Program-made: the position numbers and the translations under genes
Notes under the pieces: model-generated
What the model was told of the DNA's origin: nothing
The model's input: only the letters and a program-made list of their open reading frames with translations
Databases searched by the model: none
Source of the DNA: Magnetospira sp.
GTDB taxonomy: Bacteria; Pseudomonadota; Alphaproteobacteria; Rhodospirillales; Magnetospiraceae
Reading direction: 5' to 3'
NCBI GenBank assembly: GCA_028282245.1
Contig: JANQIL010000030.1
Coordinates: 8,538 to 32,537, forward strand
DNA length: 24,000 nt
Shown: piece after piece, positions 15,338 through 18,099 of the stretch
How positions within the stretch are numbered: the first letter of the stretch is position 1
Layout: every line of letters begins with the position of its first letter

Positions 15338-15907
15338 TCACAGGGCCGCCACCTCCACCGCGTAGCGCAGCGGGCCTCCCGGCACCAGGGCACCGAATGG
15401 CCAGCAGGTGAGCAGGACGGCGCGCGGCCGGTCGGAGTCCGGCCGCACATAGGCATGGTCCCGATGCAGGACCCGGCCCGGTCCGGCCGCATAACGGGTC
15501 GTGCGCCCCGAGAGATCGGTCAGGCGCACCTCGTCGCCCGGCACCAAATCGCGTAGAAACGCCATGTGGGTGTCCCGATGGCCGGCGATCACCGCGACGC
15601 CCCGGCGGTTGGGGGCGGCGCTGCCGTCCTGGTGGCCCGGCCCCCAGGCGATGCTGCGCCCGCCGGTCCCCGACAGCACGATCAGGTCGACCTCCAGACG
15701 CGGGACCTCCAGACGCGCCACGGGTCGGGTGTCGGCCCATGGCCAAGGCGGCGGGGCCGCCCCGGTGTCCCGCGCCTCGGTCCAGGCGTCCCGGATCAGA
15801 TGTTGGCCGAGTCGCGCCTTGGCGAGGATCCACAGGCCGCCGCCGAGCTGCCACAGCCCGAACCCCAGCAGCAGGATCGCCGCCATCCGGACGAGACGCC
15901 GGTTCAC
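15338..15907 (-). CDS. Class GN (proteobacterial, subfamily-6-type) sortase, 189 aa
   Basis: N-terminal anchor RMAAILLLGFGLWQLGGGLWIL, catalytic His context VAVIAGHRDTHMAFL, catalytic Cys in VLLTCWPF (TLxTC-like), and a distal Arg (PLRYAVEV). The GTG start overlaps the stop of the upstream VIT-VWA gene (GTGA at 15904-15907). Confidence 0.85.
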   Translation of the reverse strand: MNRRLVRMAAILLLGFGLWQLGGGLWILAKARLGQHLIRDAWTEARDTGAAPPPWPWADTRPVARLEVPRLEVDLIVLSGTGGRSIAWGPGHQDGSAAPNRRGVAVIAGHRDTHMAFLRDLVPGDEVRLTDLSGRTTRYAAGPGRVLHRDHAYVRPDSDRPRAVLLTCWPFGALVPGGPLRYAVEVAAL

Positions 15908-18099
15908 GGCGCCACCCTCCGGCGCCGCGACAGGATCAGCAGCGCGCCGCCCCCCAGCAGGGCCAGGAATCCGACCGCGAGTCCGAGGTCCGACGCCGTC
16001 GCCCCCCGGGCCCGCAACAGGGGCTGGCCGACGGCGGTGGCGACGACGCGGGCCTGCCGCGTCGGGTCCGGCGCGGCGGGCGCCGGCGGGCCGCCGAACA
16101 CCTTCTCGAACGTCCAGCCATGCGGCAGGTCGGTCGCCACCGGACGGGAATCCAGGCCTTCGCCGGCCGGCCGTGCCGGGGTGACGTCCACCGCCACCAG
16201 GCTGGTGAAATCGCTGACCAACCCATGTTCAAGGGCCACGCCCAGCACGTCCCGCCGGATGTCGTCCTCCGACGCCCCCTCGTGGCGGCGGTCGGTCAGG
16301 CTCTCGATCCTGCCGCGCGCCCACAGCTTGGCGATCCCCGTTCCCGGCCGCGCGGCGGACAGCGGCAGGGTCAGGCTCCAGTCGACGCCGTTCCGCCAAC
16401 CGCCCAGGCCGATCCCGCCGGAGACGTCCTCGAGGCGCGCCGCGAACACCAGCGGCTCGCCGGCATAGAGGTCGGGCAGCCGGGCCGGCCACATCTCGGC
16501 CCGCGCCGATTCCGAAAACGTCGCCCGCAGGTCGCCCAGCACCGGCGCCTCCAGCTTGGCGAACAGACGGCCCATGCGGCTCTCGACCCGCGACTCGTCG
16601 GCGATGAAGGTATAGGTGCCATGACCCAGTTCGGCCGCCTTGCGCATCAGATAACTATTGGGCGCCGATCCGATACCCACCGTGAACAGACGCGAATCGC
16701 CCAACCCGCGACGAACGGCGCCCAGCACCTCCGCCTCGTTGCCGACCGCGCCGTCGGTGAGCAGCACGATCTGCCGTACCCGCGCGGCATCGAAGCGACC
16801 GTCCAGGGCCAGGGCCAGGGCGGACAGGATCTCGGTGCCGCCGCTGGCCGACAGGTTGGCCACGAATCGCCGCGCCTCGGCCAGGCTGCGCGGATCGGCC
16901 GTCCGGGCCGTTGGGAACAGCACCGAGGCATCGTTGGAAAACCGCACGATGTTGAACCGGTCGTCCGGACCGAGGCCGTCGAGGGCCCTGAGCAGGGCGG
17001 CCCGCGCGCCGTCCATGGACAGGCCGTCCATGGACCCCGAGGTGTCGACCACGAACACCACCTCGCGCGGGAGGGCGTTGGCCTTCGCCGCCTCGGCGGC
17101 CGGAGGCTGGATCATGGCCAGCAGATAGGTGGCGCCGTCGGGCGCCGTTTCGGTGAACAGGGCAAGGCCGGGATCGGCCGCCGGCCTTGGAGTCCAGGTC
17201 AGCACGAAATCCCGATCGGCCGGCACCGCGCCGTCCTTCAGGGTGACCACCTTGCCGCCGTCCGCCGCGTCGCGCACCTCGATGGCGTGGCTCGGACTGG
17301 CCAGGCGGGCCAGCGGCAGACCGGCGTCCAGGCGGACGGTGAATGACACCGGATTGCGGGCCGCCGACTCCGGGTGACGCACCGGCGGGGTGATTCGCTC
17401 GGCGTCCGGCACCTGCGGCGTGTTGATGCCCCAGCCGCTGCCGGCCTCGCCCAGGATCGTTTTGTCGCCCGGGATGTAGCGTGGCGCGACCACGGTCGGG
17501 AAACGCATCACGAAGCGGCCGTCGTCCCGGCGCAGGGTCTCCTGAAACCCGATCTCCACGGCGATCGAGGATTTCGGGGCGATGTTGGTCACCGCCGTGG
17601 TAAAGACATTCGGCCGCTCCTGGGTGACCAGGGAGGCGCGCCGGCCGTCGCGCCGGGCCGCCTCGTAGTCGCGGCGCGCCGCCTGTTTCTCCTTGATCAT
17701 GCCCTCGATGGTCCGCTCGCCGATCCGCATGCGCAGGCTGTCGACCGCCGAATCCTCGGGCAGCGGGAACACGTAGGTCCCCTCGACCCAGGCATCGTCG
17801 GGATTGACGAACATCTGGCGGACCCGGGCGCGGGCGATCGGTCCGGTCACGCGAATGTCGATCTCGGTGCCGACGGCGGGTGCCGGGCGGGCCGGATCGA
17901 CCGGCGGGGCGGCGGCCCCGTCCTCGCCGAGGATCGGCCGCAGCATCAGCCCGCCCGGCGGCGCCTCGGCCCGCGCCGAGACGGCGGCCAGGGTAGCGAG
18001 GATCAGGCCGAGGGCGGCGACCCGGACGGCGTGCCGGGTCCGGGGGCGTAGCGCGCGGGGCTTGGCGGCGACGAGGCGCAGGCTCGGGTGCGGGTGCAT
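15904..18099 (-). CDS. VIT + von Willebrand factor A domain protein with a C-terminal sortase-type anchor signal (proteobacterial sortase target), 731 aa
   Basis: The track ORF was trimmed to ATG 18099-18097, which has AAGGGGA 5 nt upstream. The signal peptide ends ...AAVSARA-EA. The VIT domain reads [67 protein letters not shown]...[14 protein letters not shown]. The VWA domain has a MIDAS motif, [13 protein letters not shown]...ASGGTEI...LLTDG. The C-terminus has the tripartite ...[38 protein letters not shown]. Confidence 0.9.

Follow-up and report, generated by a model that had tools for sequence, protein, structure and literature searches.

Proline-less sorting signals in a class GN sortase dyad of Magnetospira and its relatives

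In Shewanella oneidensis, the genes SO2194–SO2196 encode PdsO, the sortase target SO2195 and the sortase SO2196, under the two-component system PghKR/PdsSR. SO2195, induced by PghKR, a sensor of peptidoglycan damage, promotes the survival of spheroplasts exposed to beta-lactams (PMC13712847; bioRxiv 10.1101/2023.05.05.539549), and its anchoring site is stated to be unknown in a paper from 2026 (PMC13712847). Sortases of this class, termed GN, are nearest to class D according to SortPred (PMC8703055). Class D substrates of Bacillus cellulosilyticus carry LPXTAT, with the sortase gene often beside that of its substrate (PMC3617157). Here we analysed a sortase gene and its neighbouring target gene in a 24,000-nucleotide stretch of DNA from Magnetospira sp., hereafter the window (GenBank assembly GCA_028282245.1, contig JANQIL010000030.1, positions 8,538 to 32,537). 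An earlier reading of this stretch, made from the letters alone, had noticed a Gram-negative sortase dyad whose target lacks a canonical LPXTG motif. It had also held that the attachment substrate of such systems had never been shown experimentally, which agrees with the statement made in 2026.

The gene pair is a genuine copy of two families that are already catalogued, a TIGR03784 sortase and a single TIGR03788 substrate with VIT and vWA domains. The target scored 713.2 bits against the NCBIfam model TIGR03788 (‘marine proteobacterial sortase target’; curated cut-off, 551.65 bits), covering profile positions 2–629 of 629. The sortase scored 167.3 bits against TIGR03784 (‘class GN sortase’; cut-off, 158.25), with an LPxTATN-specific class D sortase as its second-best NCBIfam model. 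These scores, both above cut-off, bear out the single-target proteobacterial arrangement that the sequence-only reading had proposed. The source genome contains one TIGR03788 match above cut-off and one sortase domain, which adjoins the target and is co-oriented with it, and the target is the best candidate for a tripartite tail in that genome. As described previously, the TGA stop of the target overlaps the GTG start of the 189-residue sortase in the tetranucleotide GTGA (15904–15907), and the enzyme bears the motifs AGHRD and LLTCWPF. Its catalytic His, Cys and Arg, whose alignment had been named as a point to check, match those of the solved class D sortase 2LN7 and do not vary among the 84 complete family sortases collected. 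Taken with the comparative data below, we consider it likely that the two genes form a working minimal dyad of class GN, whose proline-less signal is shared across its lineage.

The sorting signal and its variation in the family

We collected C-terminal tails from 120 homologues found by protein search, from 80 genome loci and from the loci of the window's six nearest relatives. With the membrane helix as anchor, the tails were aligned by a nine-column matrix that was refined iteratively, and a few odd tails were curated by hand. This yielded 192 unique anchored tails, of which 174 had a clear motif and form the basis of the column counts. The family signal reads x-L-P-Q-[T/G]-A-T-[P/D/A]-A, with Leu in 125 of the 174 tails at column 2, Pro in 130 at column 3 (Ala in 21, Gly in 19) and Gln in 127 at column 4 (Arg in 22, Lys in 8). 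Column 5 is Thr in 111 tails and Gly in 62, column 6 is Ala in 159, column 7 is Thr in 163 and column 8 is Pro in 88. A literature search found no description of signal variation in this family.

In this register, the R-G-A-T of the window target (L-R-A-R-G-A-T-A-S) falls on the family core Q-[T/G]-A-T, with Gly at column 5. The Leu-Pro of the consensus is replaced by Arg-Ala, and a Leu stands one position further upstream. The spacing between signal and transmembrane helix equals that of canonical members (d=12), and the tail matches the frequent variant E-L-P-Q-G-A-T-D-S position by position, including the GFLALL with which the following helix starts. The earlier hand alignment, which had set R-G-A-T-A-S on L-P-Q-T-A-S, was thus two residues out of register, the correct counterpart being LPQGAT. 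Its claim that Leu-Pro is lost holds, with Arg-Ala rather than Arg-Gly in its place, and the alignment of the 174 tails shows that the canonical residues are absent and not merely shifted. The reported lack of LPxT in the last 60 residues extends to the whole target protein when its translation is searched. The window target therefore has no LPXT[G/A]-type motif before its helix but does have the R-G-A-T core. It keeps the least variable part of the family signal, and only Leu-Pro is missing. Because 44 of the 174 tails also lack Pro, an LPXT motif does not define the family as sampled, although this fraction of about a quarter comes from a sample biased towards relatives of the window. Judged from these columns, Leu-Pro is the less constrained part of the signal in this sortase class, and the form [L/F]-x-A-[R/Q/K]-G-[A/G]-T is, by alignment, a variant of the family L-P-Q-[T/G]-A-T.

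In a tree of target proteins built without the last 60 residues, so that the signal could not shape it, the window target sits in a clade of seven members (Shimodaira–Hasegawa-like approximate likelihood ratio test (SH-aLRT) support, 99). Besides the window target, this clade comprises two Magnetospira species and four uncultured relatives, at 54–65% identity. All seven members carry [L/F]-[R/K/H]-A-[R/Q/K]-G-[A/G]-T, in which Pro is absent and the core is kept. In the one other genome of the genus examined, L-R-A-R-G-A-T-A-A accompanies an intact sortase, and each of the six closest relatives has an intact sortase gene overlapping or directly adjoining that of the target, in neighbourhoods that are otherwise unrelated. 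Identity within the clade is 72% over motif columns 1–7 and 81% over columns 3–7, compared with 11% over the 24 residues directly upstream. Because the motif is an island of conservation in a poorly conserved linker, the signal of the window appears to be a constrained element and not a product of decay. These comparisons suggest that the proline-less signal is a lineage-wide variant, probably not a broken or exotic system.

Loss of Pro recurs elsewhere in the tree. A neighbouring clade of six members has the proline-less signals L-[G/N]-A-Q-T-A-T, L-[W/R]-A-Q-G-A-T and F-G-S-R-G-A-T; the 13 rows of both clades lie on one side of a weakly supported branch (53), so a single common loss is possible for them. 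Pro was lost independently in betaproteobacteria of the Casimicrobiaceae type (G-G-A-Q-T-A-T), in Methylomirabilota (G-L-G-Q-G-A-T) and in two gammaproteobacterial lines. Altogether, the tree requires five losses, three of which are forced by well-supported branches. The sortase is retained with every proline-less target, both in the tree (21/21) and in an enlarged set (24/24). The target has a patchy distribution. Among genomes of the window's order, 12 of 61 carry it, as do 60 of 401 species representatives of the Alphaproteobacteria (chosen for a completeness of ≥90%), and it also occurs in records from Nitrospirota, Methylomirabilota, Acidobacteriota and Thermodesulfobacteriota.

We pooled the loci of the 60 target-bearing alphaproteobacterial representatives with the earlier pairs, giving 139 unique sortase-paired tails. 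Of these, 103 have both Pro at column 3 and Thr or Ser at column 7, 12 have Pro only, 24 have Thr or Ser only (the class of the window) and none has neither. Thr at column 7 is thus a strong tendency (~91%), and the 12 tails without Thr or Ser there all keep Pro. We do not claim a rule that either Pro or Thr is required, as about two double negatives are expected under independence and the register of one clade is ambiguous. At the loci examined, seven homologues without a recognizable signal had no intact adjacent sortase, and a long-tailed, motif-less clade had no sortase gene downstream at any of four loci, two of which are additional to these seven homologues.

Several loci depart from the common arrangement. 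At one, a VIT-vWA homologue with a helix and a basic tail but without a sorting motif is followed downstream by a sortase-like open reading frame (ORF; L057:6061-6846). This ORF aligns to the N-terminal half of the sortase (16 bits), lacks the His motif HRDTH and looks to be decaying or repurposed. Three of the seven signal-less homologues (L186, L187 and L188; G426:C7, G338:C22 and G227:C7) score below the TIGR03788 cut-off and end in tails that resemble PEP-CTERM ([V/A/T]-P-E-P, helix, RRR), with no sortase gene downstream of them. In these, the same VIT-vWA cargo architecture appears to be wired to an exosortase system instead. At L151 (G320:C11:3499999-3506681), a second VIT-vWA paralogue that has neither helix nor signal stands between a signal-bearing target and its sortase, and genome G139 has a second, tail-less target copy elsewhere (L176). 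In one alphaproteobacterial clade (L157, L161 and L163; G271, G375 and G129), a conserved L-x-D-A-P-T-G-L of ambiguous register replaces the family motif, and the accompanying sortases retain their His, Cys and Arg motifs but have lost PWPWADT.

Recognition, cleavage and rival explanations

The pattern of conservation suggests a mechanism in which the VIT-vWA protein would be exported by Sec and held in the inner membrane by the helix and RRRR at its C terminus. The sortase, translated together with it and anchored by its own N terminus, would then cut the target within L-R-A-R-G-A-T-A-S, and a thioacyl intermediate on Cys168 would transfer it to a nucleophile of the envelope, presumably an amine. 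Recognition appears to rest mainly on the [Q/R/K]-[T/G]-A-T core near the membrane, with Leu-Pro dispensable. By homology with class D, the scissile bond most likely follows column 5, here Gly/Ala, because class GN is nearest to that class, whose signals read LPXT/AT. On the same ground, the amine of meso-diaminopimelate, in peptidoglycan or lipid II, is the most likely acceptor; a Bacillus anthracis sortase is said to use meso-diaminopimelate as acceptor. The example of Shewanella SO2195 suggests that the physiological role may be envelope integrity under cell-wall stress. We further propose, tentatively and with somewhat less than even confidence, that class GN sortases differ from all characterized sortases in making their decisive contacts with [Q/R/K]-[T/G]-A-T (P2, P1 and two primed residues), in treating Leu-Pro as optional and in accepting Gly at P1.

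A different placement of the cut, after the Thr of column 7 (R-G-A-T/A-S, making [T/G]-A-T the P3–P1 residues), is a possibility that we rate as appreciable though unlikely. The Thr of column 7 is more strongly conserved than column 5, and Thr is, as generally known, the P1 residue of all characterized sortases. This cut would, however, place the Pro found at column 8 in half of the motif-bearing tails (88/174) at P1′, which is generally held to be unfavourable for transpeptidation. The LPXT/AT signals of class D have the same A-T on the primed side, and 12 sortase-paired tails have neither Thr nor Ser at column 7.

Lineage-specific co-evolution would instead mean that the sortase of the window clade has been retuned to L-x-A-[R/Q/K]-G-A-T and no longer accepts LPQTAT, and that canonical GN sortases reject the proline-less signal. 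Consistent with such retuning, all seven clade sortases replace a near-constant Phe at position 115, after HRDTH, with Met or Leu, the one difference close to the active site that all of them share, and a four-member subclade has further private changes (Q93, N100 and W88). In addition, compared with canonical members, the hydrophobic residue of the signal is one position more distant from the core, which would suit a changed binding groove. Yet three sortases that are paired with LP[Q/R]GATD signals have Leu115 too, and no residue found in all sortases of the clade is rare elsewhere. Nor does any column of the sortase alignment change consistently across six contrasts of independent proline-less lineages, in a comparison whose power is low because there are only about five independent contrasts. 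Retuning is not needed to explain the data, since no sortase residue tracks the loss of Pro, and we regard it as distinctly unlikely. The same recurrence of proline-less signals with unchanged sortases removes the need for the choice that the sequence-only reading had offered, between diverged specificity and a different cleavage site. A complete loss of processing, which would leave the target C-terminally anchored in the inner membrane and facing the periplasm, with the sortase kept for another substrate or a non-catalytic role, seems to us very improbable. It would fit the absence of Leu-Pro, the main determinant of characterized sortase signals, and a heterologous or sortase-independent function of the Shewanella target is compatible with published work (PMC13712847). 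Against it stand the island of conservation at the motif, the intact triad and the translational coupling of the genes in every clade member. Moreover, the genome holds no other convincing tripartite tail and, where the signal is truly gone, the sortase is gone too or lacks its His motif.

Several points weigh against a functional dyad with a proline-less signal, which we nevertheless favour. Gly would occupy the presumed P1 position, where characterized sortases use Thr, and we know of no precedent for this. Some other constraint near the membrane could account for the conservation of the motif. As 12 of the 139 sortase-paired tails lack Thr or Ser at column 7, the importance of the core describes a tendency rather than a rule. 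All trees were made by a quick maximum-likelihood method, with SH-aLRT as the only measure of support. Finally, cleavage of a target by a class GN sortase has been shown in no experiment, and the sortase dependence of SO2195 is stated to be undetermined (PMC13712847).

If the core reading is true, the window clade represents a natural minimal form of the signal, L-x-A-R-G-A-T, that could be used to define a new sortase recognition motif. A natural series of signals is now defined (LPQTAT, LPQGAT, G-L-G-Q-G-A-T and L-R-A-R-G-A-T), which bears on where Gram-negative sortases cut and on what they attach protein to. Should Gly at P1 and a proline-less signal truly be accepted, this would also be relevant to the use of sortases as ligation tools.

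Gene features and neighbourhood

The features of the two genes are listed in Table 1. Of the two possible starts of the target gene, the ATG at 18099 has a Shine–Dalgarno sequence (AAGGGG) 6 nt upstream and gives a product of 731 residues, which is also the length given by public gene callers and the database gene call. The predicted signal peptide has a basic n-region and a hydrophobic core of 14 residues followed by SARA/EAPP. Residues D352, S354, S356, T422 and D449 are invariant in a family alignment of 53 sequences, indicating that the metal ion-dependent adhesion site (MIDAS) is intact. The tail consists, in order, of a 13-residue segment, the hydrophobic helix of 19 residues and S-RRRR-VAP. 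The ORF, Pfam matches and invariant MIDAS columns thus support the earlier description of a secreted 731-residue VIT and vWA protein, and the hydrophobic helix and RRRR tail that it reported are present in the translation. A metagenome scan with the target protein found no closer relatives, the best match having 49% identity.

Table 1. Positions of the sortase dyad and its parts in the window
Feature	Position	Strand	Basis or remark
Class GN sortase, 189 aa, GTG start	15338..15907	minus	TIGR03784; Pfam Sortase E 2.7e-18
Catalytic Arg181 in GPLRYAV	15365..15367	minus	aligned to R of PDRYIIE in 2LN7
Catalytic Cys168 in LLTCWPF	15404..15406	minus	aligned to TC of 2LN7
Catalytic His110 in AGHRDTH	15578..15580	minus	aligned to HRDT His of B. 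anthracis class D sortase 2LN7
Family-specific PWPWADT motif, residues 54-60	15728..15748	minus	W55, W57 and D59 invariant in 55 sortases
N-terminal membrane anchor of sortase, residues 8-28	15824..15886	minus	hydrophobic stretch after basic MNRRLVR
Sortase target gene, 731 aa	15904..18099	minus	ORF; signal peptide, VIT, vWA, linker, sorting signal, transmembrane helix and basic tail in order
Longer target ORF, first ATG at 18159	15904..18159	minus	alternative start, 751 aa
RRRR stop-transfer tail of target	15916..15927	minus	translation
C-terminal transmembrane helix of target	15931..15987	minus	translation
Sorting signal L-R-A-R-G-A-T-A-S, family columns 1-9	15991..16017	minus	register from anchored family tails
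vWA domain	16591..17064	minus	Pfam PF13768/PF00092
MIDAS motif DTSGS of vWA	17032-17046	minus	further MIDAS residues in GGTE and LTDG
VIT domain	17548..17868	minus	Pfam PF08487, E 2.4e-32
Sec signal peptide (predicted), residues 1-44	17968..18099	minus	translation read by eye, -3/-1 Ala rule

The sortase gene is followed downstream, on its own strand, by a CxxCxxCC (PF03692) gene (14585-15259) and three ORFs (12363-14525) whose translations read as probable ccmA, ccmB and ccmC. The CxxCxxCC-domain gene was considered as a partner of the dyad and rejected, as it does not stand beside the dyad in the six closest relatives. A divergent upstream ORF that ends at 19875, the start of which is not fixed, looks like an aspartate aminotransferase gene; a divergent aminotransferase gene also stands beside the dyad in Magnetospira sp. 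QH-2 (L099), and the other neighbours are not conserved. The first part of the window (1-5700) has a GC content of 53–61%, compared with about 70% in the rest, and contains a DUF350 gene, a GGDEF gene and several ORFs without a Pfam match; it is possibly an acquired island. The reading of the low-GC first 6 kb as an rRNA operon was rejected. An Rfam scan of the window gave no match. A scan of 14400-18800 for promoters and terminators found none.

Comparison with known systems

The VIT domain followed by a vWA domain with a MIDAS, as seen in the target, is also found in eukaryotic VIT-vWA proteins such as the inter-alpha-trypsin inhibitor heavy chains and PARP4, and the best sequence matches of the target in the Protein Data Bank (PDB) are PARP4 (E 1.2e-30) and ITIH4 (E 2.5e-30). 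The eukaryotic proteins have no sortase and undergo C-terminal processing by a different chemistry, so that the relationship is at the domain level only.

With the Shewanella system, the locus shares both protein families, a sortase directly downstream of its target, and the VIT and vWA domains with a C-terminal helix. It differs in that the window signal lacks Leu-Pro, whereas PQTST is reported for Shewanella, and a link to beta-lactam tolerance has been shown for Shewanella only. The five-gene proteobacterial dedicated sortase (Pds) system was not found: the best matches to TIGR03789 and TIGR03785 scored 61.6 bits (cut-off, 152) and 168.9 bits (cut-off, 612), respectively, and neither lies at the locus. 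No homologue of PdsS or of the OmpA-like PdsO above cut-off was present in the genome (3.17 Mb, 93% complete), in which PdsR itself was not searched for, and there is no regulator at the window locus.

The best solved-structure match of the window sortase is a class D enzyme of Bacillus (B. anthracis SrtC, PDB 2LN7), with which its His, Cys and Arg motifs align, and the substrate signals of the two classes share T-A-T after a variable residue. Unlike class D, the window system belongs to a diderm host, serves one dedicated substrate and has PWPWADT in its sortase; within its family, column 5 may be Gly and Leu-Pro appears to be dispensable in several lineages. To this comparison the present data add that repeated loss of Leu-Pro has left the enzyme in place, and that homologues without a signal are found without a working adjoining sortase.

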